From contig CAWJTV010000039.1 of the NCBI GenBank assembly GCA_963845755.1, positions 288,001 to 352,000 of the forward strand: a DNA stretch of 64,000 bases, written 5' to 3'. Shown here piece after piece: positions 24,234 through 43,376 of the stretch. Under the pieces are notes generated by a model. That model worked only from the letters and a program-made list of their open reading frames with translations, made no database searches and was not told the DNA's origin. The translations under genes and the position numbers were made by a program. This DNA is from an uncultured Planctomycetota bacterium (lineage in GTDB: Bacteria > Planctomycetota > Planctomycetia > Isosphaerales > Isosphaeraceae). Numbering within the stretch: the first letter of the stretch is position 1; each line of letters begins with the position of its first letter.

Positions 24234-24443
24234 GAACGGATTCCCACGTCCTTCTCTGCGACTAATCCTAAAAGAAATATTTATTTTAACATTTTAAAAT
24301 AATAATATATTATGTATTGGCGTTCCGAGGGGGAACCTTGGGAAAAACCGAACCAGGGAAGACACCGAAAGGCACGTCCGTTTTTCGTGCCCCTGTTCAC
24401 CTTCCCGGAGTCTCCCAACGATCGGGGTATGACCGTGCGGTGC

Positions 24444-25830
24444 TCAGCGTCGCCGCCGCGCCTGGTCGCGCAGGATGTTCTTCTGATTCTGCTTCACCAG
24501 GATCTCGAAGAGGTCGTCCCTCTCGCCGGGGCGGGTCAGGTCCTGGCCCGTCTTCACCACCCCGATGTAGGCCACGCACATCTCGTCGGTCACGTCGGGG
24601 CCATGCTTGACGAGTTGGGGCGGTCGGTGGGGGTTGGCGCGTGCGGCGAGTTGTCGTAGTGGGCCACGATCTTGACGACCGACCCCTTCGGCAGGCGGAT
24701 CGGCTGCTCGAAGGAGTAGGTGTTCTGCCAGGAGGGGTCCCAGTCGGCGATGTGGAGGAGGTCCTGGTTGCGACCGTTCGGGTACGTGACCGACATGCGG
24801 AACTCGCGCCGAGCTGGTGCATGTGAGGGGCGAGTGCGATCGCCTCGAGGTTGACGGGGACGAACCAGGTCGCGCGGACCTCGACGTTCGCGTTGCCGGG
24901 CGCGAGCTTGAAGGTGGAATTCGACACGTTCGCCCACTCGAGCATCCGCTTGACCGGCTTGCGGGCGAAGTGAAGCCCCAATCGCGTGCGGTTGACCTCG
25001 GGCTTCCCGTTGGGGTGGTAGTGGACCTGGAGGATCACGTCGGCCCGGCGGGGCAAGGAGCGGCCGATGCCGTCGGGGAGGTGCATGGCCTCGTTCCCCG
25101 CGGCCCAGCCGCCCAGGTCGCCGGCGATCTCGATGCCGGGCCCCGAGTACGAGATGTAGCCCGGCCCCGGCTCGGCCGTGTCGCGATGCCGGCCGTACGC
25201 GTGGGTGTTGACGAACGCCATCATATGGTGCACCACGCGGCGGTTCCCCGGCCGGTACTCGACCGCCGAGATCGACACGTCGCGCGGGAGGTCCGTGGGG
25301 ATCACGAAGCACCGGTAGATGTCCGGGCCCGAGGCGGGGACCCGGAAATCCTCCGCCATCTCGAGCACGAGGTCCGGCGGGCCCAGCGCCCATCCCTCGG
25401 GGAACCGGGCCGGGGCCGGCATATGCGCCGGCTCGCCCCGCGGGGCGCCCGCATCGGCCCACGCCTCGAGTACGGCGATCTCCTTCGCCGTCAACGAGCG
25501 GTCGTGCTTGAGCTTGGGCCCTACCCCGGCTGTGGGCTTCCAGGGGGGCATCGAGAGGTCTGCGGCCACCGCGGCGATGTCCGAAGCGCGCTTCCGAGCC
25601 TGCTCATATGTCTCCAACGCAAACGGCCCGATCTGGTCGCGGCGGTGACAGCCCTGGCATCTCTGCTGGAGGATCGGTGCCACGTCCTTGGTGAATGTCG
25701 GCGCCCCGACCACTCGAGTCGGTTCTTTGCCCTGACTCACGGGGGTGCCCAGCCAAAGGATCCCTGCTGCGAACCCAATACCTGCAAACCCGGTCCGTCT
25801 TACGGCCGCCCCGATGTGTCGAAACCTCAT
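24444..25830 (-). CDS. Secreted copper type II ascorbate-dependent monooxygenase-like protein with N-terminal CxxCH; frameshifts near 24810 and 24635
   Basis: 'PTFTKDVAPILQQRCQGCH', 'MPPW', Cu ligands 'VVHH', 'HYH', 'PHMH' and 'DEMC' (last in the shifted frame). Confidence 0.8.
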
Positions 25831-26477
25831 TCAGATGGGCCCCCGGCAAGGTGCGGAGAAGTTGCGTCGGACGCGTAGACGACGCAGCCCCTCGGCGGCA
25901 TACCGCCCTCCAACCCCGGCTCGTCGGGTCGGAACTGGGCGCGGCGGCGCGGGCGGATCGTCTCAGCTAAGCTTCGAGTACAAGAAGAGATATCGAATCC
26001 AAATTCCGTGAGCGATCGATCCCTCGGTTCCTTCGCTCCACGCCGTCGAATTCGATAGCGGACGGGCGAACGGACACGGTGGTCAGTAGAGATTAGGTTG
26101 GGAAGGACAGGAGAAGCCCCATGCTAGCATCCCCATCCCAGAGAATCAAATGAATAATCCGTTTTTTTCGCGACCGGCCGAGCTGGCTAGAGAGTCGCCC
26201 TTGGGCGGCTCGTCCGGCCGACAGAGGAGTTCGGGAGCCAATTTTGTGCCGAGGCCATCGCCGGTACTAGCAATATGTATAATAGTATTTACAGATAAAA
26301 ATAATTATTTATGAAATTCTCCGCCTGGCAGAAATGGTTAACACTGGCCCGAGTTCGGGAGGGGATGGAGGGCGTGCTCTTGAGGGCATCTCGGCGCGTC
26401 TTTTGCATTTCCTCGCAGACGGCACGTGAGCGGGCCGATGGTTTCCAATTCGAGCAATGTTCAAGGAGATCTCGATC

Positions 26478-26702
26478 ATGTCGGACAAATCCTGGGGACT
26501 CTGCAAGGACTGCAAATGGTGGCAGATCGAGCCGGATGCCGCGGTGAATAACCTGACACTAGGACTCTGCATCGACGAAAAGCTCCAACCCTACGTCTTG
26601 CGGGTTTCGGGGATCAGCGGCTGCAATCGGTTCCAACCCGGCAAACCGGCCAGGGCCGAAGGGTCGGCGGAGGCGCCGCCGCGTGCGAAGCCGACGCGTT
26701 AG
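26478..26702 (+). CDS. Small four-Cys protein (74 aa)
   Basis: RBS AAGGAG. 'CKDCKWW...GLC...VSGISGCNRF'. Confidence 0.75.
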   Translation: MSDKSWGLCKDCKWWQIEPDAAVNNLTLGLCIDEKLQPYVLRVSGISGCNRFQPGKPARAEGSAEAPPRAKPTR

Positions 26703-26759
26703 CCGCCATTTCTCACTTCGGAGACCGCGAAACCGACGGGGAAACGGATCGGACCGATT

Positions 26760-26906
26760 CACCACAGAGTCACAGAGCACACAGAGAAGGTCCAGATGCG
26801 TCGTGACGTGAGAGAACGGCCAATCGCCCGCTTCCGGCGGATCGGACCGAAACCCAGAATGATTTCTTATTTCTGTATTCTCCGTGTTCTCTGTGGCTCT
26901 GTGGTG
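26760..26906. repeat. Palindromic repeat, family C (CACCACAGAG.CACAGAG...CTCTGTG.CTCTGTGGTG)
   Basis: Inverted arms of iterated ACAGAG units. Single arms also at ~38307-38339 and ~62918-62949. Confidence 0.75.
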
Positions 26907-28742
26907 CGAAAGCCGGGTTCGTGATTTTTTCTCCGCCAGACCTCGACGTGGCCGAATCGAGCCTCGGGCACGTAGTCGCGTCGGATGATCCCGATCACAT
27001 TTTCGAGCTTCATGGCCGGGATAACGTCGCGCTGGCGTGGTTCCCAGACCACAACCGAATCCGCGGTCGCTTCGAGCTGTCTGGCGAATTCGGGGTCGAG
27101 ATCGAGATTGACCCATTGCAACCAGCAGATCCCCGATTCGGCAAGGAAGGGGGAGAGGCGGCCTGTCGGACCATTGAGCGACTCCATCGGGTACCGGTTC
27201 AAGACGTTGGCAACGAAGGTTTCGGGTTGGGTGGAATCGCGGAGATAGCCCAACACCAGACAGTAGGTCTCCCAGGGCGAGAGAGGGTGTGATGCGCCCT
27301 GGAAAGCCTGGAAGCAGCCGGGCGGGGGGTTCGCCGGCATCTTACCGAGGACCAGGGACCGCACCGCCTGGGCGCTGCGATCCAGGTGGCACATCCACGG
27401 TCTCTGGGGCACGACCTCGTAGGCCAGCAAGGCGACGGCAACGACGTGCACCGGCCTGCGCCAACCCACGCAAGGAAATCAACAGGTAGGCGGGGAAAGC
27501 CCAGGTGATCGAGCCAACCACGAAGAGCGGGTGAATGAGATACGTGTGCGGGACCGGGTGAATCGGCCGATAGACGAGTGCCGCGACCCACGCCAACAGC
27601 CAGGTGCGCGCGGTCCCCGTCAACCGCGACGTGCGGCTCAGCGCGAAGATCAGGGTGGTGGCGAGCGGGACATCCGTTCGCCAGTCCGAGCCTTGTTCGA
27701 GGAACATCCTCATCGCACCGGCCGGCGTAACCCGGCTGTAAGGCCCGCCGTAGGCGACCACGCGTAATCCACGAATCCAATCGTCAGTGATCCCCGAGAA
27801 AATCACCGGTGTAAATGCTACCAACGAGAAGAGGCCGGCCCACCCGGCCCACTCGATGACGGTCCATGCTCTTGCCGACCGGCTCGTCCCCGGGGCCGGC
27901 CCGGGTTCGGCGATCGCCGAGGCCAGTGCGGGGAGGAACAGCACGGCATTCGGCCGGATCGCGAACGCCATCGCGGTCGTGAGGGCCGATGCCATCCGGG
28001 ACCAACGACCGGGCCAGGATTGGGACACCATCAGGCCCAGGGCCACCAGGAACGCCACGTGCCAATCGCGCTCGCCGGTGGTCTCGAACGGCTGGCTCAG
28101 GTAGAACTTCAAGAAGGCCAGATAGCCGATCAGCCCCGGCACGGCACCGTCGAGCCTCCGACGGCTCCAGCAGACCAGCACGATCCCCAGGAGCACGACG
28201 CAGCCCGCGTCGAACGCATAGAAGGGTGTGGTCCGACCCCAGCCGAAGATCTTGCCCAGCATCCAGAAGATGTAAGTCTCGCCCGGGAAGTTGTAGGCCC
28301 TGATGTCGCGGTAGGGGAGAATCCCCCGATCCCACGACATGGCGAGCACGGCGAAGGTGTCCTCGTCGCGGCTCCAGGGCCAGGTCAGGTAGTGGGGAAC
28401 CCAGGCCGCCAGGAAGACGCCGCACGTGACCCCCAAGGCCATCGACAACCCTCGGTCCCAGGCGAATTCGGCGAGCGCGTTCATCCCTGTCAGGCCCCGC
28501 CCGGCGCGTCTCCGAAGGTCCCAGGGTCCGATGTTCGATGTGGCGAGTTGCCTGGTGAGGAAGTAGGCCGCGACGAGGGCCGATGCCATGGCTTCGACCC
28601 AACACGCGCGGAGGGGAGCGGGCGTCAACCTCCAGAGCAACCTCGACAGATCCGGGAGGATTAGCAGGACGAAGAGAGCGGCCGTACCCAGGAAGGCGAC
28701 CGGGAGGACCCTTCTCAATCGCGGTCCGGACGTGAGCGGCAT
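26867..28742 (-). CDS. Polytopic membrane protein, GT-C glycosyltransferase-like, frameshift near 27460
   Basis: 'RDEDTF...GILPYRD...NFPG' loop, many TM segments, soluble C-terminal domain in ORF 26867..27469. Confidence 0.65.
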
Positions 28743-28975
28743 GAGCGGCCACCGATGACTTGTCGATCCGACGGCCTCGTGCACCGGGACGCATCCCGCG
28801 AGGGCCATGAACGCGAGCCGTCAACCCTTTCAGCCGATCCGAAGACAAGCGTTTCGACGCGTCTCGTCCCTCGATTCTTTCACGGGGCCTCCGGGTGTGT
28901 CAACCGGAGCGAGATCCACGACGTTCGGCCATTTCGACCCACCCGACAACAGGCCTCTCGTAGACCCCCTGAGCC

Positions 28976-29683
28976 TCATTGGAGACGGGCCGTTTCGGGG
29001 GCATTGGCGAGCCAGTGCGACATCAGCATCACGAGGTGGGTGCCGCACGCGAGAATCTCGCCCGGTTCGGGGTTATCCGGAGAGGGTCCGTCGTACCTCG
29101 GAATGTGGATGAAACCGCGACAGGCCACGCGGTCGCCGAGCTCGTGCATGGCGCGGTAGAAGACGTAGTTGCAGACGTACACGCCCGCGTCGCGCCAGGC
29201 CATGACGTCCGTGACCCGCCCTTGGCCGCGAGCGGACAAATACTCGCGGCGACTCTTCAACCCTTCGTAGAACCAGGGCAGGGGGAGGGTCGTCTCATGG
29301 ATTCCGGGTCCTCCCTCGACGACCTGCTGCGCCGGCAGCGGCGGGGGTAGCTCGCCGATCGCGTCGGGAGAGGGCACGGCCAGGTTCCGCGCGACCAGCT
29401 CGAGGCGGACGAACGGATGGGGGGCCGCGCCGAGCATGAGGAGGGCGTCGGGCGCCCGCTCTTCCACGGCGTCGCGGATCGAGGGCCAGGCGTACCGCCA
29501 GGTCGTATCGAGCCGAAGGCCGACGACCCGGACCCCGGCGATCTCCTTCCCGTGGACGAGGTTCGCCACGTCGTCCGTGGGATTGTTGAAGCAGTCCTCG
29601 AACGGCCCGAACCCGGTCACGAGCAGGGTCTGCAGACGCCCCGCCCGCCCAGGACCGTCGGACGATGTCACCTCGTCATCCAT
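28976..29683 (-). CDS. pcp: Pyroglutamyl-peptidase I (peptidase C15)
   Basis: 'LLVTGFGPF...NP', catalytic Glu ('RLELVARN'), Cys ('DAGVYVCN'), His ('GFIHIP'). Confidence 0.85.
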   Translation of the reverse strand: MDDEVTSSDGPGRAGRLQTLLVTGFGPFEDCFNNPTDDVANLVHGKEIAGVRVVGLRLDTTWRYAWPSIRDAVEERAPDALLMLGAAPHPFVRLELVARNLAVPSPDAIGELPPPLPAQQVVEGGPGIHETTLPLPWFYEGLKSRREYLSARGQGRVTDVMAWRDAGVYVCNYVFYRAMHELGDRVACRGFIHIPRYDGPSPDNPEPGEILACGTHLVMLMSHWLANAPETARLQ

Positions 29684-31969
29684 GGTTCGGTGTCCCCTCA
29701 CGCTTCGGCTGGCTGTAGACGGAGGTAAAATAGTGCCGCTTCCGAGCCTGGATCTGACGCTCGAACCAGGCCGTCATCGCGGCCTCGCTCGCCACGTCCT
29801 CCGGTTTGTAGATCGCCAGGATGGTCCCCTTGATATCCGCGGCGACCTTCTCGGAGGTGGCGAGGTCGCACAGGATCAGTGTCCCCTGGGGGTCCTTCGC
29901 GATCATCAGGCCGAGCTCGATCATGACATTGGGGTTGTAGCCCGAAACGTCGGCGATGAACCGGCGGCTGGTGGTGACGTGGTCGCGGACGTTCTTGAAC
30001 AGGTTCTCGTCGAGGATGTTCTCGTCGGCCCGGACCACCTCCCAGGAGTACGGATCCCGGCCAAGGATCGACTCGATCGCCTTGTAGACGGTGTCGAACG
30101 GCGCACGAAACGGGAGTGCAACAAAGCACTTGGCACGGCCTCTGGTCGATGGGGGCGGTGCCGACTTCGGCCTACGTTCGATCCCTTCGTAGAGGAAATC
30201 GATCAGGTTCCCGATCAGAGGCTCGGCGATTTTCGTGACGGCCCGGGGGAACGGCGACCCGATGATCGCGATGTGCAAGAGCGTCTCGGCTGCCGTGGTC
30301 AAGGTATCGTTCGTGAGATCGTCGGCCCGGGCGGCGAGATGCTCGATCACGGGATGGGCGATGTTGATCAGGAGAGCGTCGGCACTGATGCTGGGCTCGT
30401 TGTTCTCGTCGTCGTCCCGCCCGTCCAGCCCGAGAGCCGGCGCCGACTCCTTGATCAACAGTGCCGCCGGAGGGCCCTCGACGCCCAGCGTGGTCGACGG
30501 GAGAATGCGGAGGTTGCTCTGACTCTTGAGCGCCCGGCCGAGTCGGTTGATGAGCCGGCGGAATGGGTCTGGGATTGGGGGGACGGGCAGCGGATTCTGG
30601 GATTCGTCCTCGGTGACCGGGTTGATGATCGTGACTTGGTCGTCGGCTGCCAACTGCTCGAGCAGGGCCTTCTCCTCGACCCCCTCGCCGACCACGATCA
30701 GCTTATCGAGTCCGCTGGTCTGGCCCATCTGGTACTGACGGGACGACGTAGATGACCCGTTTCCCCGCCGGGTCGTCGCTGGAGTCCGCAAGCCGGATGA
30801 TGTCCGGCCAGGCGTGCTGGCCCGCGGTGGTCTCGAAGCGGTAGTGATCGCGAAAGAGCTGGCGGAGTCGTGGAGAATACTTGGCGTGGACGAGCAGGAG
30901 CGTACGGTGGGTCCGCAAGATCTCCTCCATCAGCCTCGGCTTCTCGCGGCCGACTGTCTCGAGGAAGTCGACGACGTGCCCCTCGGCTTGCTTGCGGATC
31001 TCTTGATAGGCCGCGTCGCGCCGAACCGCTCGCGGTTGATCTGGAGGAGGAAGTGGGGGCTGTCGACCAGGGAGACGATCAAGGACAGGTTCTCGGGAAG
31101 GAAGTCCGGGCGCTGGCAGTCGAGGAAGACTCCCTTGGAGAAGAACGCGATCTTCTGGTTGTAGACATCCTTCAGCTCCTGCCGGGGGATTCCGAGGATC
31201 AGCCGCGTCCGCTTCTCGTCGGGGCCGTCCTTGGGGGCGTCGTCGAGAAGGACGGTGTAGGCCGCGAGTGTGTCCTGGGACTGTGAATTTCTTGAGGAGC
31301 TCCCGCGCCGTCGGGTCGAAGAGCAGCCGCCCTTCTCCCTCCGATTGGGATAGGGCGGCGAGCCAGCGGTGGTGGACATTGACCGCCGGGGCATTGACGC
31401 CGACCGAGATGGGCACCGACAGGAGGGCGAAGTTCTTGCTAATGTATTCGCGGAGCACGGCGTTCTGCGCCGAGGGTCATCGCGGCGTCATCGTCCGGGT
31501 CGAGGTGGAGGACGGCGAGCGTGCCGACCTCGGTGCGGGGGCACCTCGAGAGGTGGTAGGTCGTCGCGTCGCGGTGCCACACGATCCTCCAGCCTTGCTC
31601 ATCCGATGCGGAACGAGTCTCGACGATGATCTTCTTGGCGATCATGAAGGCGCTGAGGACACCGACCCCGAACTGGCCGATGGTCTCCGCTTCTGCGGCG
31701 GGGTTGGGGACGTGGCCGCCGATCTGGGTGAATCCGTTGACGATCACCGATTCGTCCATTCCGCAGCCGTTATCGAGGAAACTGATGGTCTGGCCGTCGG
31801 ACCAGACCGAGATCCGCGGCTCGGTCACGCCCCGGGTGGCGTCGCGCGCGTTGGATACGAACTCGCGGATCGGCGTCTCGGGATCGTCGCTGACGTGCCT
31901 GCGGAAGAGGTAGAGGATCTGCTCGACGTTCGGGATGACTTCCCTCACAGAGGTCCCTGGTTCACCCAA
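29676..31969 (-). CDS. HSP90/HtpG-like ATPase fused to a C-terminal nucleoside-2-deoxyribosyltransferase/TIR-like domain; about 4 frameshifts
   Basis: GHKL motifs 'IREFVSNARDA', 'DNGCGM', 'IGQFGVGVLSAF', 'GT'. HtpG middle 'FLPENLS...LQINRE', C-domain 'LLINIAHPVIEHL'. Then 'CFVALPF...VRAD...IADVSGYNPNVMIELGL'. RBS GGAGGTGAGG before TTG. Confidence 0.8.
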
Positions 31970-32023
31970 TCCTCACCTCCTTCGTTATGGGGGCTTCGTC
32001 GATTCACCTTCGGCGGTGGCGCC

Positions 32024-33223
32024 TCATGGCCAGGCCCGGCACCGGAGCTTGCGGACGGGCTCACAATCCCATCGGCCGAGCGGTCGGTCAGACAGCCTGT
32101 CCCCGGCAATCAGCCCGGCGCAGGCGTCGATGTCGGCGGGGGACATCTGGTACGACGACAGCCGGCCACGAAGCGCATCGAGTGGGCAAGTCCGTCGGCC
32201 ACAAGGCGGCCATCACCGGGCTGCGGGCCGCCGGCTTCCGCGATCTCCCCGGCCAGCGCGCCGACCTCGACGGCCCGGAGCAAGAGGGTCAAGGCCGGGG
32301 CCCCCTCCAGCGTCGCGGCCAGGTCTTCGCAGAGGGCGTGCAGGTTCACCCCATCCCTTGCGAGCACGCCCCAGGCGATCCTCAGGAGCTTCGCATCGGA
32401 AAGCAGAAAAGGATCTCCCTCGCGACGGGCGCTGTGGTCCAACTCGGCCAGGAAGTCTTCCATCTCTCGGCGCGCGGCCGCGACATCGATCGCCTCCCCC
32501 TCGGCGAGCCGTGAGGCGAAACGCGCCAGCCGGATCCGCAACATCGCCCCGGCCGCGATGGCCGTGCTCCACGGCAGGCCCTGGGTCCGAAGGACCTGGC
32601 GCGGCATGCCGGGCCACCCGGGCCTCCGACCCTGGGATGCAGAGGTACCCGAGCACCAGGAACCCCTCGATATGTTCAGGGTGGAGGAGACCAAAGGGAC
32701 GAGACTTGTCCGCGATCAGCTCGACCCCCTTCCGGACTCGTTCGGCCGCCTGTTCGACCTCACCGAGCTGCCGAAGGAACAAGCCCTCGGCGACCTCGAT
32801 CTGGGCCGGCAGATCCTCGCACCCCTCTACGATGGTCCAGTTGCGAGCCTCCTGGATCAGTCGGCGGATATACTTGTGGTCGTCGGAGAGGGTCCGTCGC
32901 AGCACGGTGATCAGGCCGAATTGAGCCCGCACACCATAGTATTTCGCGTGATTTCCTTTCGGCAGCGCAAGTTCGTAGTAGTCTCGAGCCTTCGCGAAAT
33001 CGCCCATGCCGCGATAGGTCTCGCCCAGCAGGACGGCCGCTTCAATGTGCATTTTCGGGTCCGCATGGTTCAGCGATTGCTGAAGGTAGGGTATGGCATC
33101 CTTGCGATGCCCTTCCTGGAAGAAACGGACACCCATCTCGTGGATCTTCTTCGGTTCTTCGCTGTCCTTGCCCGGGCGATCATCGTCGTTCAGGATGAGG
33201 TCATCGTCGTCGATATAAGCCAT
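32024..33223 (-). CDS. Tetratricopeptide-repeat protein, about 2 frameshifts; 3' end uncertain
   Basis: 'AIPYLQQSL', 'LGETYRGMGDFAKARDYYELAL', 'LRQLGEVEQA' TPR-like helices. Continues in ORF 32110..32694. Confidence 0.65.
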
Positions 33224-33296
33224 GGGATGCTCCATCGGAGCCGCGAAGCCGGCGGCGGCTGACTCGCCATGGTGACGATGGGGTTGCGACCGGGGG

Positions 33297-33680
33297 CTAA
33301 TTCCTCTTGAGGTCGATCGGCCTCCATTGATCGTCGACCTGGACCTGGAGGCGATCGGGGCGGAAGAACCGTCCTTCGCGGGCGGTGACCCCCTCTGCGC
33401 GGACCTTCGAGCCCACATACAACGCGAGGCGCTCCGGTTCCACGACGAGGTAAATGACTTTCCCCTTGGGGGTCAACACACCGAGCGGGAGGTTGGCCTT
33501 CGCGGCGACGAATTCTTCATAGACGCGCCAGTCTCCGCGAGCGCCGGATGTGAACTGGGACCTCAACTCGACGAGTCGGCCTTCGACGCGAGGAAGGCCG
33601 AACCCGAAGGCCCCGACGCCGGCGGTGGCCAGGTAGGCCAGGGAGAGGACAACGAGGGCCGTACCGAGTCTTCGCTTCAT
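33297..33680 (-). CDS. Secreted hypothetical protein (127 aa)
   Basis: Signal peptide MKRRLGTALVVLSLAYLATA. Start overlaps the upstream stop (TGATG). Confidence 0.75.
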   Translation of the reverse strand: MKRRLGTALVVLSLAYLATAGVGAFGFGLPRVEGRLVELRSQFTSGARGDWRVYEEFVAAKANLPLGVLTPKGKVIYLVVEPERLALYVGSKVRAEGVTAREGRFFRPDRLQVQVDDQWRPIDLKRN

Positions 33681-34147
33681 CACTCGTCCCCCCGTAGCGA
33701 CGCCGGCCCGGCCGATCCCGAGAGCGGCAGGTCGAAGACGATCCAACGATCTCCCTCCTGGTATTCCAGTTTCAGGGGTGTCAGGCAACGGCCCTCGTCA
33801 TGGCGCAAGCCGGTCGCTCGAATCCGGATCGGACCCTTCGGCCGGGCACGTCGCAGGCGGGCGAGCAGTCTCCCATCGACCAGGAGCAGGGTGAATTGGT
33901 CGCCCGTGAGGATCCCGCCGGGTAGCCCGTGCACGAGCGCCTCATCGTCTCTCCGGTCCATCCCTGCTTCCTTGACGGCGTCCTGTAACGGATTGAACAG
34001 GGCGGCCGCGCTGCAGAGCCGGCCTTCGACGGTCGCTTGAAGGCCGTCGTCGGTGCCGGCCCCGCCGGAGGCCATGCGGACCAGGCCGAGGACCAGCCCG
34101 GAGAGGAGTAAGAGTCCCAGCAGGGAGGGTGGTGCGTACCTCGTCAT
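33680..34147 (-). CDS. Secreted/membrane-anchored hypothetical protein (155 aa)
   Basis: N-terminal hydrophobic helix. ATGA overlap with the upstream gene. Resembles the downstream neighbour. Confidence 0.75.
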   Translation of the reverse strand: MTRYAPPSLLGLLLLSGLVLGLVRMASGGAGTDDGLQATVEGRLCSAAALFNPLQDAVKEAGMDRRDDEALVHGLPGGILTGDQFTLLLVDGRLLARLRRARPKGPIRIRATGLRHDEGRCLTPLKLEYQEGDRWIVFDLPLSGSAGPASLRGDE

Positions 34148-36054
34148 GAGTCCTCTTCCCAATCGCGCAGGCCCATCTTCGCCGCAAGCTGAGCGCGATA
34201 GCCCCGGACCGTCTTGCGAAATTCCTGATCGTCGGGGCGGAGCAGCGTCAGGTAGTGGAGGAAACGGAAGTGGGCGTGACAGAAGTCAAGGGTCATCCCC
34301 TTCTGGGGGGCCATCCCGCGCCGGTAATGGACCTCGGCGACCTGTTTAAGGATCTCTCGTGCGATCGGACCGCCCTTCGCATCCTCCTTCGCCAGGATCA
34401 ACAGGTCAACCGAGTAGATGTCCTGTTCCAACCCCTCCCACGTTGCGAAGTCGGGCTCACCGCCTTCGTCGCGAGCGGCGGCGTCAACGACACGACGGCG
34501 GAACTCGTCGAGGATGTTGGCCCGTTCCGCCGAGAGAAGATCCTGCAACTCGCGGTGTCGGGCCGATGCCTCCACGACCCAACTCTGAAGGCTCTTCCAC
34601 CGTTTCGACGCGATCTCACGCAGTTCCTGACCCTTCGCCAGTGAGTAGGTCGAGAGGCGGTGGAGCCCCTGGGCACGAAGTCGGAAGCCATCCGGCAACG
34701 CGCGGGTCAGGTCGAAGAACCGCTTGGCCTGGAAGGAAGCTCCGTCCTTCGGGTCGGATCGCAGCGCCTCCAGGAGTGCGAGCCTCGCCTGCAAGAGCGG
34801 CGAGTCTCGTGCGAGAACCTGGACGTCCCGGAGCCAGGCGAGATGCAAGACCGGCTCGACCCGGTCCTCATCGCTCAATCGTTGACGGAACCGATCTGAT
34901 GGGTAGAGGCCCCGTTGCAAGGCCGGCTCGACCCAGTCCTCATAGATCAATGTCAGGGCCATGTTCGCCTGGGCACTGGTCTTGATCTTATCGCCGATGC
35001 TCTCCGCCGACAGGTTCACCCAACGCTCCCACGCCGCGGCCGACGGCGCCAGATCCTCGCCCAGATTCCGCCAGCTAGCGAGGCCCACCAGGGGGGGGAA
35101 GTCAACCTCGTCCAGCCCTTGGGACAATCGATCCATGAATCGCTTCCAGAGGGGGACATTCTGCTGGAAGACCGCTTGGAGGACCGCGTACGTTTCGACC
35201 AGCGAGGAAGACTCGTCGAGCCCCGGGAAGGCCTGGCGATATTCCTTCCAGTTCTCTTCCATGTCCTTCTGGAGGGGGGCGTAGGGGAGAGTCAACGTGG
35301 CGCGATCCAACTCCGTCGGGACGTCCGTGGCGCGATACCACTTGCTCATCCCGAGCCGGCGGTTCGATTCGACTCGGATGCGGACCGGGAATCCTTCATC
35401 GGCCCTCTCGGCGAAGATCGTCAACTGCCCGATGAAGCTGGAGGATCCCTTGACGTCCGCGAACCCGGGAGGTCGGGTGTACTGCGAGGCGAGTCGTCGG
35501 TACAGGATAGCCTGACTGGTCAGGTTCTCCGGAGCCAACAGCCATGAGAGGCGATGCGATGGCAGTTGATCATAGCCCTTCGATCGCACGACCAGCGGGT
35601 GCTTCTCAAACCCGGCGGTTGGCGAAGAACCGAGGGCGACCTGCACCGCGTACTGGTCATAATCGCGGAGGGCTCTCCCGAGCTGGGGGTCGAGATACGG
35701 CGGAAAATACTCCAACTGGTCCTGGGAGAACGTCTCGCCGACAAGTCCCGAGATGAAGCCCCGATCGCCCGAGATCACCACCGGCCCGCACGGGCCGCGC
35801 TGAGCCCAGGCCGCAATCCGATGAAGCATGCCGGGCGGCAGCTTGATGAACTTCACGTTCTTCGGCTTATCGGCGTCGGAGTAGACGACAACGAGACTCC
35901 CACGGTCGATGGCAAGGTCCTGGACTTTGCGGACGTCGATCGCGGGATCAACCCGGATCACCAGGCCCGCCCCCGCTCGCCACGCAGGAGCAACGACCAG
36001 GAAGAGGGCGATCGCCCAGAAACTCGCGCGTCGGAAGGGAAAGCTTCGTTTCAT
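34144..36054 (-). CDS. Secreted hypothetical protein (636 aa), helical C-terminal half
   Basis: Signal peptide MKRSFPFRRASFWAIALFLVVAPAWRAGA. Long uninterrupted ORF, translationally coupled to the next gene. Confidence 0.75.
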   Translation of the reverse strand: MKRSFPFRRASFWAIALFLVVAPAWRAGAGLVIRVDPAIDVRKVQDLAIDRGSLVVVYSDADKPKNVKFIKLPPGMLHRIAAWAQRGPCGPVVISGDRGFISGLVGETFSQDQLEYFPPYLDPQLGRALRDYDQYAVQVALGSSPTAGFEKHPLVVRSKGYDQLPSHRLSWLLAPENLTSQAILYRRLASQYTRPPGFADVKGSSSFIGQLTIFAERADEGFPVRIRVESNRRLGMSKWYRATDVPTELDRATLTLPYAPLQKDMEENWKEYRQAFPGLDESSSLVETYAVLQAVFQQNVPLWKRFMDRLSQGLDEVDFPPLVGLASWRNLGEDLAPSAAAWERWVNLSAESIGDKIKTSAQANMALTLIYEDWVEPALQRGLYPSDRFRQRLSDEDRVEPVLHLAWLRDVQVLARDSPLLQARLALLEALRSDPKDGASFQAKRFFDLTRALPDGFRLRAQGLHRLSTYSLAKGQELREIASKRWKSLQSWVVEASARHRELQDLLSAERANILDEFRRRVVDAAARDEGGEPDFATWEGLEQDIYSVDLLILAKEDAKGGPIAREILKQVAEVHYRRGMAPQKGMTLDFCHAHFRFLHYLTLLRPDDQEFRKTVRGYRAQLAAKMGLRDWEEDS

Positions 36055-36297
36055 GGATCTGGTAATAAGGCATGCTTGATTAATGGTCAGCCTTCGACCG
36101 GACCGGCAGTCAACACCGTTCGCCATCCCCGTCGAAGACCGACCCAATCACACGGTCCTTGAACGAAACCTCGGGACATCGCTCGGGCGGGACGGAGCCG
36201 GTTAGCCCCAGACTCGCGAACGGGCTGGAACCGGCTCGTCTTCATTCCTGTTGAACGAACACGCTTCACAAGGTGTCGTCTCAGCTCAAGCGGGTGG

Positions 36298-36858
36298 TCA
36301 GCGCCCCTTCTGGGGCACAAGGCCGCCGTCACGTCGGATGGTAGCAGAACCCATCATCCGCCAGCGACGCGGCGTGAGGAACGGTTCGGTCGAGCCAACT
36401 TCCGGTTTCGCCGTGGCCTTTACACTGGGCTTGTTGCCCTTGCCGGCGGTTCCGACCTGTCCGGCGGTTCCGACCTGTCCCGCGGTTCCGACCTGTCCCG
36501 CGGTCCCGACCTGTCCGGCGGTCCCGCTCCCCGACTTGTCCCGCGGTTCCGACTTGTCCCGCGGTGCCGACTTGTCCGCGGTTCCGACCTGCCCCGCGGT
36601 GCCGACTTGCCCCGCGGTTCCGACTTGCCCGGCGGTGCCGACCTGTCCGGCGGTGCCGACTTGCCCCGCAGTGGCGACCTGTCCGGCGGTCCCGACTTGC
36701 CCTGCGGTTCCGACCTGTCCGGCGGTTCCGACCTGCCCGGCAGTGGCGATCTGTGCTCCGAATGATGCAGTGGTGAGGGTCATAGCGGCCGTCATTGCGA
36801 TGGCGACCGTATGGAATCGTCCGAGATTCAATCCCAACCTGCGGGCTAAATCATCCAT
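36298..36858 (-). CDS. Secreted (TAGQVG)n hexapeptide-repeat protein
   Basis: RBS AAAGGGAG, signal-like 'AIAMTAAMTLTTASFGA|Q', then repeats. Variation between units is mostly synonymous in this frame. Confidence 0.7.
   Translation of the reverse strand: MDDLARRLGLNLGRFHTVAIAMTAAMTLTTASFGAQIATAGQVGTAGQVGTAGQVGTAGQVATAGQVGTAGQVGTAGQVGTAGQVGTAGQVGTADKSAPRDKSEPRDKSGSGTAGQVGTAGQVGTAGQVGTAGQVGTAGKGNKPSVKATAKPEVGSTEPFLTPRRWRMMGSATIRRDGGLVPQKGR
36443..36744 (-). repeat. ~16 tandem copies of an 18-bp unit (ACC GCS GGR CAR GTC GGN)
   Basis: Direct reading. Three units are read out of frame ('DKSAPRDKSEPRDKS') between two indels near 36575 and 36528. Confidence 0.9.
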
Positions 36859-38203
36859 TGGATCACTCCCTTTCATCGTGACGGTACCATTCTGAACCTG
36901 CACGTGCCTGGAAATGCGCGTTCGATACCCCATGTGGCTGACCAACAGGGTCAAACCGACACTCACAACGACGATCCGACAAGACCACGAAACGGAACAT
37001 CCACCGACATGAAGCCGGTAGGTTCGACTCTTGACTACAAGACCGGCTGATCATCTGCCCCGACCAACCACGGCGGCTTCAGACTTCTCAGCGATCACGC
37101 AGACCAGCGAGGTTGTCGCTTACTCCCGATGCCGCGCCGACTCGTACATGCTCGAAGTGGTCGCCTGAAAAGGCGCGGGGTCTCAGGCAACAGCATCTCA
37201 AAGGTGATTGAAAAGTCTCGGACAGATGACAATCGCCCTCGAATGTTTGCAATCTGTCGCACGAGGAGGCCAGCGAAGCCCCATTCTCTCGGCCGCTTCC
37301 AGAGCAGTCATTTAACAGTATAGCGAGAGCCATCTTGCTTTCAAACGAATTCTGGCGAGACTCACGGATTTTGGGGTGGGCCCAACGTCAAGGCTCCGGT
37401 AACGCGACTGCTCTTGTGTTCAGATATCTCAATTCGACCCTGCTTCTCGAGCCCTAGGCAAGCAAGATCCGCCGTTCTTCATCCTCAAGACCTCTTTCCG
37501 ACTTCAGGTGACATCGGGGTCTCGGCGGCCTATACTCGCGAATAACCGCTTTTGATTCGGTTCGCGGGCTTTGGTATTGTTGCGTTCAGGTGCGGGATGT
37601 GGGAACGAAGCCGATGGCCCGACCCTAGTTGAGGATCTTGGTCAGAACATCGTTGGTGATCGCCAAATGTATCGTGTCCCGTCGTCACATCATCTCGACG
37701 CGAACGGGATCGATATGCAGGTTGCCGACCAGGTCCCCCTTTCGGGTCAGGCCACCGCCGAGATCCACTTCCTGTTCGAACCTCTCGAGCAGCCCGCGAT
37801 CGACCACTGCCCTCCCTATGGCTCGGTCTAGCGGCGCTGGCGAGATCGCTGTCGAGGAGACGGCCCTTCCGCTCGATGCGCTCGCCGTCGCTCACCGCGA
37901 CGATCTCTTCCGTCTTCTTCCTTATGGCGCTGCGCGGACGGCTCATACGATAACGCATACCTCGCCCAACCGTCATTTCTGCCATGGTAGCACCCCGGTA
38001 TCGGCAATCCACAAAATGCGGCCGATCGCATCTTGACAGGCGCCCGGAATGGCGGTAGATAGTCCTTCGCGGGCCGATCGCATAGATCGTTTCATGAATT
38101 AAAAACGTATTCGGAGAGTCCCGAATACCACGGGATCCTTGGGCCGATCTCGATCGACGAGTTAGGGCGCCGAACACGTGGGTTGCGGACGGCCCCGGAG
38201 TCC

Positions 38204-38429
38204 GTAGGGTGCTCTGTACTACAAACTTCGAGAGTCTTGTACGCCGAGCACGATTTCATAACGTCTCGAGGTACAAGGGGTTGGGTCGGCGGAAGGCATC
38301 GAAGAATTCTTCTCTGTGCCCTCTGTGACTCTGTGGTGAGTCTCTTTCGATTGGTTGGTTGCGGCTCGGCCGCGCGGTGAGCACCGAAGAGGGCGAGCTA
38401 CGGGGATCGCTGCTCACAGAGCACCCGAC
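38204..38429. repeat. REP-like palindrome family B with a nested family C arm
   Basis: GTAGGGTGCTCTGT at 38204 and TGCTCACAGAGCACCCGAC at 38411-38429, with CTCTGTG iterations at 38307-38339. Confidence 0.65.
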
Positions 38430-38507
38430 GGCCCGTGTGCAACCCAACCGTGAAGCGATCTAATGTGCTGTAGCAATTTGGCTTCTGCAGATTCGAGGAG
38501 TTGTTCT

Positions 38508-38984
38508 GTGTCAGTCAATACCGCCAAGGTCGACGGTCGTCGCAAGCTCGATTACGCGTCGCTCGAAGAAGTGTTGGCCGACGCGGACCGTCTCAGCTCG
38601 GGCCCGGTGAAGGAACTCGGGAATTGGTCTGCGGGTCAGATTTTCGGGCACCTCGCTCTCGCTTACAACGGATCGATCGACGGATTCACGATGACCTTCC
38701 CCTGGCCCCTTCGCATGATGGCGCGGGTCTTCCAGAAAAAGCTGATCAATGGTGCGATGCCACCAGGCTTCAATCTGCCATCCGAGGGCGCGAAGGCCCT
38801 GGCGCCCGGATCAACGTCCACCGAAGAGGGCCTGGCGGATCTCCACGCGGCCGTCGCGCGCCTGCAACGAGAGTCGCATCGTGCCAGACACCCGATGTTC
38901 GGCGATATCAGCAGGGACCAGTGGAACAAGATCCACCTCAACCACGCGAGTCTCCATATGAGTTTCCTCGTCCCATTGTCTTGA
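38508..38984 (+). CDS. DUF1569 (DinB-like) protein
   Basis: GAGGAG plus GTG. 'GNWSAGQIFGHLA', 'HPMFG...W..IHLNHASLHMSF'. Confidence 0.85.
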   Translation: MSVNTAKVDGRRKLDYASLEEVLADADRLSSGPVKELGNWSAGQIFGHLALAYNGSIDGFTMTFPWPLRMMARVFQKKLINGAMPPGFNLPSEGAKALAPGSTSTEEGLADLHAAVARLQRESHRARHPMFGDISRDQWNKIHLNHASLHMSFLVPLS

Positions 38985-39121
38985 GCGACGACGAATGTGA
39001 TATTATATCACTTATGCTGATCGGCAATACGATCGTCGGTCTGGTGACGATCGGCACGCCCGGACCCGGCTACTGACGATATCGCCGCGGGCCCAGAAGC
39101 GGACGCTCACACGTACGCGGA

Positions 39122-40273
39122 TCAATAAACAACCCGCCGCTCCGGCACCGCGCACCCCCAAAGCGCATAGGGATCCGACATCTCATTGATCCCCTCCCCA
39201 TACGGCGAATAGGCCGGCGCGAGGTGCACCACCGCGCACGCTCCCAGTTCCGTCGCATAGAGCCCATTGCGCGTCGGCAGGACCCGGTGCGACATGCTGT
39301 TCTGCGACGGGAACGCGATCGTCTGCTGCGTCTCGATCTTGTCGTACGCGACGCTCAGGCCGACGTCGAACACCGCGTTCAGCGCCATCATCGACGCCAT
39401 CGACGAGCCGAGCAGGAAAATGCGCGCCGGCGCCCCGGGCGACGGGGCGTCCGGCCCGAACCCGAGGTGGATCAATGATGCCCCCATCGCCGCGCCGCGG
39501 TTGATCTGGAACCACTGGATCTGTGCCTTGTCCGTGATCCGCCCGAATCGCCCCTGGCCGCCATGGGAGTCGCCGAGCAGCACGAACCAGACGTTGCCGT
39601 CGGGACCGGGGATCATCCCCACGGGCGTCGAGCCCATCTCGGAGGGCACGGGGATCGTCTTGGTCTTGTCGGGCGAGTCCTCGGGTTCCGAGCGGACGAC
39701 GCGGAAGATCGCGCTCGATTGATCGAGCGTCGCGTACACGTCGCGGCTCTCGGGATGCACGGCGACGAAGATGGGCCGCGGTCCGCACGGGAAGATCGAA
39801 CAATCCGAGGGGCGATCCGGGTTGATTCGCACCACGTGATGGCTGTCCTTGCACGAGGTCCAGAGATCGTCGCCGTCCTCGATGACCACGTGCGGCCCCT
39901 TCGCCGGCGTCGGGAGCGGCACGCGCCGAACCACCTGCGGCGATTCGTCCGGATTCGTGCCCCGCGGATCGATCAGCACCAGCTCCGAGACGAACTGGAG
40001 CGTCGCCCACACGAATCCCTTGTGGCGCTGCGATACGTAGAGTCCGTGCAGGCCCGCGAACGCATCGTCGATCGTGTGTTTCACGGCCGCGATCGGCCGC
40101 CCCGTCGAGGGATCCACTTGCATCTTCACCAGAGCGCTGCCGGGTTGCTGCGAGACCAGGAGCAGCCCGTCGAACGGCGCCACGATCTCGTGCGTCTGTT
40201 CGTCGGCGGGGAGAGGATACTCCGTGGCAGTCTTCAGCGCAATGCGCCCGCCGTGCGAGGACAACGTGGACAT
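39122..40273 (-). CDS. Vgb (streptogramin lyase)-like beta-propeller protein
   Basis: 'THEIV', 'GLHGL', 'GPHVV', 'PIFVA', 'STPVGMIPGPDGNVWF' blade repeats. Confidence 0.65.
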   Translation of the reverse strand: MSTLSSHGGRIALKTATEYPLPADEQTHEIVAPFDGLLLVSQQPGSALVKMQVDPSTGRPIAAVKHTIDDAFAGLHGLYVSQRHKGFVWATLQFVSELVLIDPRGTNPDESPQVVRRVPLPTPAKGPHVVIEDGDDLWTSCKDSHHVVRINPDRPSDCSIFPCGPRPIFVAVHPESRDVYATLDQSSAIFRVVRSEPEDSPDKTKTIPVPSEMGSTPVGMIPGPDGNVWFVLLGDSHGGQGRFGRITDKAQIQWFQINRGAAMGASLIHLGFGPDAPSPGAPARIFLLGSSMASMMALNAVFDVGLSVAYDKIETQQTIAFPSQNSMSHRVLPTRNGLYATELGACAVVHLAPAYSPYGEGINEMSDPYALWGCAVPERRVVY

Positions 40274-40489
40274 GGGCCGCTCCTGCTTGGCGACGGTTTT
40301 GGGACTCGTCCGCGCAACGCGCAGTCCGGCCATGATCTCGCCCGCGCGGTCGCTCCGCAAGAGGGCCTTGTGCCGGCTATCGCACCCGAATTCCAGGCGG
40401 AATGACATGACGATTGACTTGGCCTCGACGAGTTCGGAAGATAGTGAGACTAGGGAATCTGGGGCATGTTGCGGGGTCAAAGGTGGCTC

Positions 40490-43376
40490 ATGAGCAGGCA
40501 ATTACTCAATCGGGGGTTGGGGACGGGGCTTGCGATGTTGCTGTTCGTCGCCGGGGTGGTGGCCCAGCAGCCACATCCAAGCACGACGGACGCCAAGACG
40601 AAGGCTCCGGCCAAACGAGCGATCCGGCCGGAGGATTATGGGGCGTGGGAATTGCTCGGCCTCGCGGCGCTGTCGCCGGACGGACGCTGGCTGGCCTATA
40701 GCATCGCCCGGCCGGACGGCGAGGGGGAGATGCGCTTGCGCATGCTCGCCACACAGGCCACCGAGGCGGTCCCCCATGGTGCCCGGCCGCAGTTCTCGAA
40801 GGATGGGAAGTGGCTGGCTTACACCATCGGCGTCCCCGAGGCGGAACGCGAGAAGGCGGCGAAGACCAAGGAGGCGGTCAAATCCAAACTCGGCCTGAGG
40901 AACCTCGTCAGTGGCGACTCGCTCACCATCGACGACGTGGCAACCGCGGGGTTCAGCGACAACGGCAAGTTCCTGGTCATGCGACGGTACCCGATCAAGG
41001 GGCGCGAGAGCGCCGGCGTCGATATCGTCGTCCGCAACCTCGCCAACGGCGTCAACACCAGTTTCGGCAACGTCGCCAGCTACGCGTTCAACGACCGAGG
41101 ATCGTTCCTGGCCCTGGCGATCGACGCCGAAGGGAAAGCCGGCAACGGCATCCAGGTCTATGACACCGCAACGGGCCTGCTCCGCACGCTGGAATCCGCC
41201 AATGCCAAATACACCGCACTCACCTGGCGCAAGGACGCGGCCGACCTCGCCGCGCTCCGCGAGAACGACCACGGCAAGGAGGAAGATGCCTCGTTCGTCG
41301 TCCTTGCGTGGCGGAACCTCAGTCAGCCGAAGCCGAAGTCGGCGACGTACGACTTTGCCAGGGACGAGACCTTTCCCAAGGACCACCGCGTGGTCGACTT
41401 CGCCGGCCTGAGATGGTCCGACGACGGCCAGACCCTCTCTTTCGGCATCAAGTCCTGGGAAAACAAGCCGGTACCCAAGGCCAAGAAGGACGAGAAGAAG
41501 CCGGACGAACCCAAGAAAGACCAACCCAAGAAGGACGAGCCCAAGAAGCCTGCGGCGAAGAAGTCGTTGCGCGACACGCTGAAGGAGCCGGCGGGGGTCG
41601 AGGTCTGGCACGCGAAAGACGTTGACATCATGCCCCTCCAGAAGAAGAGGGTGGCTCAGAAGAAGCGCGAGAATTTCCTGGCGGCGTGGTGGCTCGACGA
41701 CGGCAAGCTCGTCCCGCTCGGCAACGACCTCACCGAAGGGGTGGTCCTCCTCGAAGGCCAGAAGCACGCCCTCGGCCTCGACAACACGCCCTACGAGCAC
41801 GAGAAGAAGTTCGGCCCGACCGTTCATGACGTCTACCTGATCGACGTCAAGACCGGCGATCGCAAGAAGGTGCTCGACCACCTCAAATTCACCCTCGGCT
41901 CCAGTCCCGACGGACGGTATGTCCTCTACGTCAAGGATAAGAACGTGTGGTCCTATGATCTCAAGGGCGGGACGCACCTGAACCTCACCGGCGGACTCGG
42001 CGTCTCATTCATCAACGAAGAGTTGAGCAGCCTCACCGACGAGAAGCCCCCTTACGGCGTCGGGACCTGGACCAAGGACGGCTCGCACGTCCTGCTCTAC
42101 GACCGCTACGATGCCTGGCTCCTGAAGCCCGACGGCAAGGACCCCAGGCGGCTCACCGACGGCCGCAAGGACAAGGTGATCCACCGCCGCATCCGCCTCG
42201 ATTTCGAGGGAGATGGCGACCGATACGTGCGGCTCGACCAACCGATGTACCTGGCGATCAGCGGCGAGACCAGCAAGTACTTCGGCTATGCCCGGCTCAA
42301 GCCCGGCGAGAAGCGGGAGACGCTCATCTGGAAGCCCAAGGAGATCCAGCGCCTGCTGAAGGCGACAGACGCCGATGTCTATGCGTTCGTCGAGGAAGAC
42401 TACGACGATTCTCCCGACATCTTCGTCGCCGGGGCCGACCTCGGCTCGCCGCGCCAGGCATCGCAGACCAACCCGTTCCAGAAGGATTTCCTCTGGGGTC
42501 GCTCGGAGTTGGTCGACTACACAAGCGCCGACGGCAAGAAGCTCCAGGGCGCCCTCATCTACCCGGCCGGCTACGTGGCGGGCAAGAAGTATCCGATGAT
42601 CGTTTACATTTACGAGCGTCTCTCGGATCAGTTGCACGCCTACAGCACCCCCTCGGAGCGGAGCCCGTACAACCCTTCGGTCTTCTCGGCGGACGGGTAC
42701 TTCGTGTTCATGCCCGACATCGTCTACCGGGCGCAGAACCCGGGGCTGTCCGCGGTGGATTGCGTCGTGCCGGCGGTGAAGAAGGTGCTGGAGGGGGGAA
42801 CGGTGGACCCCAAGAAGGTCGGGCTCGTCGGCCACTCGTGGGGGGCCTATCAGACCGCCTTCCTCGTGACCCAGACCGACCTCTTCGCCGCGGGAGCCGC
42901 CGGCGCGCCGCTGACGAACATGATGAGCATGTCGGTGAGCATCTACTGGAACACCGGCCAGACCAACGCCTGGATCTTCCACGAGAGCCAGGGCCGGATG
43001 GATCGGCCGTTCTGGCAGGACGTCAACACCTACATCAAGAACTCACCGGTCTTCCAGATCGACAAGCTCAAGACGCCGCTCCTCGTGACCTTCGGCGACG
43101 AGGACGGCGCCGTCGACTGGAACCAGGGCGTCGAGCTGTACAACGCCGCCGCGGCTGGCGGGCAAGCCGGTCGTCATGCTGGTCTACCCCGGCGAGAACC
43201 ACGGCCTGGTGAAGAAACCGAACCAGGTTGACTACCATTACCGGATTCTCGAATGGTTCGGTCACTACCTGAAGGGCGAGAAGGCACCGAAGTGGGTGGC
43301 CGAGGGCCAGTCGCACCTCGACCGGCAGAAGGAGCTCGACGCCCTCAAGAAGAAACACGACGGCGAGGCGAAGTAG
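40490..43376 (+). CDS. S9 family (prolyl oligopeptidase/acylaminoacyl) peptidase, secreted; frameshift near 43150
   Basis: Signal peptide, propeller 'SPDGRWLAY', nucleophile 'GHSWG', Asp 'EDGAVD', His 'YPGENHGL' in ORF 43176..43376. Confidence 0.9.

Follow-up and report, generated by a model that had tools for sequence, protein, structure and literature searches.

A predicted Hsp90-TIR/NDT fusion protein in an apparently undescribed seven-gene operon of an uncultured Planctomycetota bacterium

Introduction

DRHyd and TIR domains are described as common effectors of conflict systems in the available text of Kaur 2020 and Kaur 2021, and two preprints (bioRxiv 10.64898/2026.09.30.754977 and 10.64898/2026.10.19.760177, citing Nicastro et al. 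2023) propose, in the parts available, Hsp90-type NTPase switches with fused N-terminal HD or calcineurin-like effectors. The subject of the current study is gene E (29676..31969, minus strand), which encodes an Hsp90 joined to a C-terminal domain resembling the TIR and nucleoside 2-deoxyribosyltransferase (NDT) folds. It lies in a 64,000-nucleotide stretch, here called the window, of an uncultured Planctomycetota bacterium of the Isosphaeraceae (assembly GCA_963845755.1, contig CAWJTV010000039.1, positions 288,001 to 352,000). On balance, we favour the reading that the gene E protein may cleave NAD+ under ATP control, as the switch of a bacterial conflict (defence) system. It would share with the proposed switches an Hsp90-type NTPase controlling a fused nucleotide-hydrolysing effector, whereas those proteins, as far as the available preprint text describes them, have an N-terminal effector and a C-terminal variable sensor, and gene E encodes a complete N-terminal, middle and C-terminal Hsp90 with a C-terminal TIR/NDT domain, in a fixed operon with secreted parts.

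The closest tested precedent found is BcTpr of Bacillus cereus. According to the available part of its description (bioRxiv 10.1101/2023.05.26.542521), it is a MilB-like NADase that needs N82 and E86 and makes an isomer of cyclic ADP-ribose; the i, i+4 spacing of this Asn and Glu recurs in the tail of gene E. As described there, the BcTir/Tpr system resembles the present one in its MilB-like, NAD+-cleaving type of domain and in regulation by TPR repeats, and differs in that the TPR part is fused there and separate here, and in having neither Hsp90 nor secreted genes. Cap12/PycTIR and the NDT, DNPH1 and MilB hydrolases share with the tail a predicted fold (Z 12-13) and the position of a Glu; unlike Cap12/PycTIR, gene E has neither a STING nor a cyclic nucleotide monophosphate-binding domain, and its neighbourhood contains no cyclase gene. 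The type IV Thoeris layout consists of a TIR gene and a caspase, in the available text of bioRxiv 10.1101/2024.10.24.620036. Two related myxobacterial loci of the present family (L002 and L025) likewise have a related caspase directly behind the TIR-fold gene; here, in contrast, the TIR domain is fused to Hsp90, and the window has a pyroglutamyl peptidase and no caspase.

To our knowledge, few functions have been established for the Hsp90 paralogues of bacteria. Press 2013 names hsp90B and hsp90C and, in its available text, leaves both aside. A term search did not find 'HSP90' in the available texts of Kaur 2020, Kaur 2021 and a survey of bacterial TIR signalling systems, and caspase was the only peptidase term found in that survey. 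Among titles and the opening lines of abstracts, no description of the fusion or the operon was found (supplements, Nicastro 2023 and Burroughs 2015 lay outside this scope). An Hsp90-like switch with a fused nucleotide-targeting effector has thus already been proposed in print; the fusion variant and the operon, which would form an apparently undescribed bacterial defence system, are provisionally new.

Results

Gene E starts at a TTG codon with a Shine-Dalgarno-like sequence upstream. Its GHKL ATPase N-domain (31490..31969; Pfam HATPase_c_3, E 6e-11) carries the catalytic Glu and Asn at 31867-31850 (REFVSN, from 31867), the DxGxG motif at 31774 (DNGCG) and the GxFGxG motif at 31681 (IGQFGVG). 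It is followed by the middle domain (approximately 30570..31470), which is recognised by PF00183 on one piece (E 0.003) and by comparison with P0191, a homologue from a second assembly of a close strain, and which has its Arg loop, INRE, at 31040-31029. The C-terminal dimerisation domain (30177..30569) contains LLINIAHPVI at 30374, and the tail contains CFVALPF at 30128, VRAD at 30035 and NVMIELG at 29930. A predicted model of the last 353 residues (mean predicted local distance difference test score, pLDDT, 81.5) splits into the Hsp90 C-domain and a five-stranded domain; model residues 1-187 match Hsp90 8oxu (Z 12.5), and residues 61-184 match the HtpG C-domain 1sf8 (Z 9.6). Among the 26 full-length relatives, conservation is complete for the GHKL Glu, Asn, Asp and Phe and for the Gly motifs, and P0191 has the Bergerat-fold motifs as well; the middle-domain catalytic Arg is kept in 25 of the 26. 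By these motifs, this Arg and the modelled C-domain, gene E is predicted to belong to the Hsp90/GHKL superfamily. An earlier note on this DNA had described a full-length divergent Hsp90/HtpG; all three domains are indeed present, with a trimmed ATP lid (22-27 residues, compared with 32-35 in five ordinary HtpG/Hsp90 proteins).

Gene E shares the three-domain layout and the ATPase residues with HtpG (hsp90A) and with the PRK14083 Hsp90 family, which we take to be hsp90B. A canonical HtpG identity was nevertheless rejected. P0001 and P0051 scored 125.5 and 143.1 bits against the HtpG equivalog model (NF003555, cut-off 371), and the scores against PRK14083 (NF010683, cut-off 455) were 129.1 and 120.7 bits; the lid is short, there is an extra tail, the family forms its own branch, and a separate canonical HtpG is encoded elsewhere in the genome.

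The tail, of about 140 residues, was assigned by fold searches and alignment as a putative TIR/NDT (DRHyd-type) domain (29715..30128, minus strand) with an N-x-x-x-E motif, the Glu lying at 29918-29916. In the model, five flavodoxin-like strands occupy residues 203-310, and this Glu (E274) lies in the helix 269-281, after strand 3. Model residues 200-341 match SfSTING-TIR (Z 13.0, root-mean-square deviation 2.4, 118 residues aligned), MilB (Z 12.4, 3.1, 126 aligned) and an NDT (Z 12.1, 3.0, 120 aligned); the Foldseek matches included the SPARTA TIR, TIR-STING and DNPH1. All profile scores of the tail fall below their cut-offs, including CAP12-PCTIR_TIR of Pfam (E 5e-4), other weak Cap12 matches and PF10137, and PF05014 was absent among the matches listed. 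With TIR and NDT matches tied within 1 Z, the tail is predicted to be TIR/NDT-like, at a resolution that admits no finer subclass. The predicted model thereby bears out the NDT/TIR-like fold suggested in the earlier note, which had also named the Glu of MIELG as catalytic; its position agrees, as a Glu is kept there in 25 of the 26 relatives, and catalysis is predicted. Four residues before it, the relatives have Asn (19/26) or Ser (6/26), and the RAD motif, like the Asp of the IAD motif, hardly varies. The 'Pro-rich linker' previously placed before the tail amounts to about 16 residues with no conservation among relatives, and was rejected as a conserved feature.

Gene E is read in five segments, and the four frameshifts noted earlier were confirmed: +1 near 31465, +1 near 31282, -1 near 31022 and +1 near 30738. 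They are assembly errors, because P0191 follows the window through all four (its own break lies elsewhere), a short-read contig with a loose end at 30739 does not have the surplus base of the fourth break, the only one its run spanned, and rpoB and rpoC, the two essential genes checked, are both split in the window's assembly. Since these two genes are frameshifted (G000:C34, 79366-83015 and 565989-572560, respectively), breaks anywhere in this assembly are presumed to be errors. Intact relatives align across all five segments. As the earlier note had stated, the C-domain and the tail share one uninterrupted open reading frame, the last of the five segments, which already begins in the middle domain; P0067, which comes from the same 65,576-base contig as P0191 and is 97% identical to the window over the C-domain and tail, has no stop between them either.

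The search for further proteins of this architecture found 26 full-length relatives with Hsp90 and tail. Intact relatives have 723-789 residues, fall into about 20 clusters at 50% identity and include nine intact fusions among the ten closest proteins; the alignment was limited to the 26 full-length members, leaving aside fragments, the N-terminally short P0048 and the tail-less P0010 and P0059. In a quick tree of 90 rows over the first 460-500 residues, 24 family rows fall together on one side of a branch (SH-aLRT 99), with the genome's own HtpG outside them, a result that is partly circular in that the rows were picked with the family's own profile. A longer form (about 690-930 residues), consisting of Hsp90, the TIR/NDT domain and a C-terminal extension, lies on other Hsp90 branches and accounts for about 60 of the 150 top profile hits by a count made by eye (P0068-P0188). 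It has the same tail family on Hsp90 and, in the one locus examined, a TPR gene two genes downstream; it differs from gene E in its Hsp90 branch, in an extra coiled segment and in the extension, and that locus has no secreted genes or peptidase slot. On a Pseudanabaena plasmid, the long form lies among TIR, DEAD/DEAH helicase, M67 peptidase, TPR and vWA/AAA genes (L050:7001-11864; L033).

The earlier note had treated gene E as standing alone; it is instead the sixth gene of a seven-gene operon on the minus strand, in the order Z, A, B, C, D, E and a cysteine peptidase (gene F in the window). The window was compared with L002 (from a Kofleriaceae metagenome-assembled genome, MAG), L003 (from a 'Deltaproteobacteria' MAG, same order, about 70% alike) and the metagenome contigs L004-L006. 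The order B, C, D, E is kept in all six loci including the window, and A in all five that reach that far. This gene order persists at about 30% identity over Planctomycete, myxobacterial and metagenome loci, and start and stop codons overlap along A, B and C and again between E and F. The operon had no match to any named system in Pfam, NCBIfam or PADLOC. Tiamat was considered and rejected: weak N-domain matches to TmtA were the only ones, and the Pfam domains DUF3684 and DUF3883 (nuclease) are absent.

The products of four of the seven genes are secreted. Gene Z (36298..36876, start codon uncertain) has a signal peptide, the sequence A|Q-I-A-T-A-G, with the predicted cut before the Gln, and tandem Q-V-G-T-A-G hexamers (Gln at 36753). 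Gene A (34144..36054) encodes a secreted protein of 636 residues and no known family, with a helical C-terminal half and an invariant Glu, Asp and three His; a word search found no homologue, Atlas matches stayed below 0.8, and its model (mean pLDDT 57) gave no clear fold match, results that do not amount to a new fold. Gene B (33680..34147) is a small secreted paralogue of gene C, fused to A in L005. Gene C (33297..33680) is also small and secreted, with a lipobox-like Cys in four relatives that is missing in the window; it has an internal stop in L003, and it matches unnamed Atlas clusters and, at 0.80, DUF5818, so that a DUF5818/OB-like identity is a lead only. Gene D (32024..33235) encodes an all-helical TPR protein of about 400 residues, has two apparent frameshifts near 32650 and 32200, and has no signal peptide in the window copy. 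Gene F (28976..29683) encodes pyroglutamyl peptidase I with its Glu, Cys and His motifs present, and its start overlaps the stop of gene E. Downstream of the operon in L006, on the opposite strand, lie a TIR_2-WD40 gene that appears to be broken into two parts and a serine recombinase (L006:7938-13129).

In L002 and L025, the last slot is occupied by a caspase followed by a further small gene, as on a Bacillus plasmid. The L002 caspase is 42-48% identical to the caspases right behind small TIR genes on all three plasmids examined, its family being judged by likeness to these plasmid operons and not to a tested ThsE sequence. Relatives of the small gene sit behind such caspases, one of them annotated DUF1273, presumably a SLOG domain. 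A small TIR gene (TIR_2/ThsB type) was not found in the L002 or L025 loci, and therefore the Hsp90-TIR gene appears to stand in its place; a short TIR query found none in G000, the window's genome, or in G453. Right after the caspase pair, a large protein (L025:2276-4561) shows by eye 3D, peptidoglycan-binding and NlpC/P60-type motifs. A LuxR-type regulator lies upstream of the operon in L002 (L002:3010-3876), and a similar-looking one beside a lone short TIR gene of G454 (L049:195-1643).

The operon lies within a 12.9-kb stretch (26167..39111) in whose place the same-genus genome G401 has about 80 bases (C11 73023-74760 corresponds to window 24431-26166, and C11 74840-76122 to window 39112-40400). 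The GC content of the stretch is the same as in the rest of the genome. The empty site and the patchy distribution of the family indicate, at the level of sequence comparison, that the operon sits on a mobile insertion. The core family was found in none of 400 other genomes of the phylum and none of 60 relatives, and gene A in none of 120 family genomes (many of all these genomes being incomplete); gene A was found in two of 147 genomes of the order of G453, both already in the locus set. Samples of the phylum and the class of G453 gave 1/400 and 16/400 other matches (1e-45 to 1e-61) and no new operon; 16 of these 17 are confined to about residues 4-380 and resemble other Hsp90 paralogues, L024 being the one inspected. 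Plasmid searches found no core family member, their matches being the Pseudanabaena long form and ordinary HtpG. Among viral contigs, none was related to the window's C-terminal open reading frame or to gene A, and the family alignment gave only weak N-domain matches; these searches therefore lend no support to carriage by phages.

Near both ends of the insertion (26490-26920 and 38200-38460) are short elements, possibly REP-like, that occur in many copies in G401. An 81-residue protein with CxxC and further Cys residues lies near the left edge (26457-26702, plus strand), and within the insertion is a frameshifted multi-pass membrane protein (27342-28848, minus strand) with no Pfam match, glycosyltransferase-like by eye. 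Just beyond the right edge lies a frameshifted Vgb-lyase-like beta-propeller gene (39122-40501, minus strand).

Discussion

The favoured reading, an ATP-gated and NAD+-cleaving switch, draws on the architecture of gene E, its catalytic-type residues, the predicted fold of the tail, the operon around it and the empty site in G401. In this mechanism, TPR protein D would serve as a sensor or co-chaperone, holding or loading the Hsp90 clamp; the TPR co-chaperones known for Hsp90 are mainly eukaryotic. A trigger, for example an invader protein or a cue passed on by the secreted Z, A, B and C proteins, would drive the ATP cycle and gather several tails into an active assembly, in which the tail Glu may cut NAD+ or a similar nucleotide at its N-glycosidic bond, leading either to a drain of NAD+ or to an ADP-ribose-type signal. 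The last gene would be a swappable cysteine peptidase that reads or resets the signal; in the myxobacterial lineage it would be a signal-activated caspase effector, and in the window, pyroglutamyl peptidase F would more likely trim a Gln-first peptide from Z than kill the cell. The earlier note had proposed a conflict-system effector that is switched on by closure of the Hsp90 dimer on a client. A role in a conflict system fits the context, namely the mobile insertion and the TIR-caspase-like arrangement in one lineage, and the effector activity is predicted. No observation shows that closure is the trigger. The tail hangs on the C-domain through which GHL proteins, as described in the available text, dimerise constitutively, and therefore closure is unlikely as the sole switch; the two tails are probably always close, so that activation would need allostery or higher-order assembly.

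Several observations weigh against this reading. As sequenced, the near-complete relatives P0010 and P0059 end before the tail, P0063 carries Ala at the position of the tail Glu, and the trimmed lid may impair ATPase activity. PADLOC models gave no good match, and intracellular phage defence would not usually involve secreted products from four genes out of seven. The tail could not be aligned with the small TIR of type IV systems (probability 0.2%), and a short TIR is present elsewhere in G454. The caspase arrangement represents one lineage, comprising two genomes about 70% alike, and the caspase could be a remnant of a neighbouring Thoeris system that has lost its TIR. Gene F in the window is a single-domain pyroglutamyl peptidase and not a known toxic effector.

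A possible but tentative alternative is peptide-controlled cell-to-cell signalling, with Z exported and cut to Gln-first hexapeptides that would cyclise to pyroglutamate, and with the Hsp90-TIR protein as the output. Equally tentatively, A, B and C would bind, process or import the peptide, D would be its receptor, by analogy with Rap-Phr and arbitrium systems, and F would erase or mature the signal. A signal peptide followed by A|Q-[VI]-x-x-A-G is present in all four loci that have the start of gene Z on the contig, as tandem hexamers in the window and L005 and as a single copy in L002 and L006. In the window's genome, 96 of 1627 signal-peptide-like starts have Gln at +1, none has the full motif, and tandem copies occur in Z alone, figures that give a rough background, as the crude scan missed gene Z itself. 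The last operon gene is a pyroglutamyl peptidase I with its catalytic motifs in three of five loci (window, L004 and L006), and gene F is the sole PF01470 gene found in the window's genome. On the other hand, a collagen-like Gly-X-Y pattern likewise describes the repeats (Pfam E 7e-11), searches of G000 (88% complete), G453 and G454 gave no glutaminyl cyclase (PF05096), and the gene D profile matched only generic TPR structures and no RRNPP receptor of the Rap, AimR or NprR type. Moreover, the caspase loci keep gene Z while no pyroglutamyl peptidase was found in their genomes, and the operon contains no transporter gene. This alternative overlaps with the favoured switch, whose input side Z and F could form.

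It is improbable that gene E is a stand-alone toxin, in which closing on a client triggers NAD+ depletion and the neighbours are incidental cargo. The occurrence of the long Hsp90-TIR/NDT form outside this clade is consistent with such a toxin; the gene order kept across divergent loci, the overlapping start and stop codons and the TPR gene near the long form argue against it. Marginally less credible is a dedicated chaperone for the operon's secreted proteins, with the tail as a non-toxic nucleotide-binding or protein-interaction module. The complete Hsp90 domains and the four secreted neighbours would suit this role, the non-catalytic adaptor TIR of TIRAP scores alike against the tail model (Z 12.3), and bacterial hsp90A co-evolves with secretion systems according to the available text of Press 2013. 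Against it stand the nearly invariant Glu, RAD motif and IAD Asp of the tail, the canonical HtpG already encoded in the genome, and the caspase that fills the last slot of one lineage. That gene E is a decayed pseudogene or two genes joined by chance, as the four breaks in E and the two apparent ones in D might suggest, is very improbable and was rejected, given the read-through in the second assembly, the broken rpoB and rpoC and the 26 relatives with an intact fusion.

A further, rather doubtful possibility is a peptide-gated immune switch, in which pyroglutamyl hexapeptides from a secreted precursor would report neighbours or cell damage and the TPR co-chaperone would relay this to the Hsp90-TIR protein, which would make a messenger derived from NAD+, with the pyroglutamyl peptidase resetting the input. 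Within it, and with the same doubt, the myxobacterial version would replace the Thoeris TIR and fire the caspase. Were this true, it would constitute a bacterial TPR-Hsp90-TIR-caspase pathway under extracellular peptide control. More generally, the operon adds three secreted proteins without an assigned family and a possible pyroglutamyl peptide signal. If the favoured reading is true, the fixed pair of a TPR protein and an Hsp90-TIR protein, wired in one lineage to a caspase, would be a bacterial parallel to the Hsp90-dependent TIR immune receptors. The control of a nucleotide-cleaving domain by an ATP-driven clamp within a single chain would then also become open to experiment.

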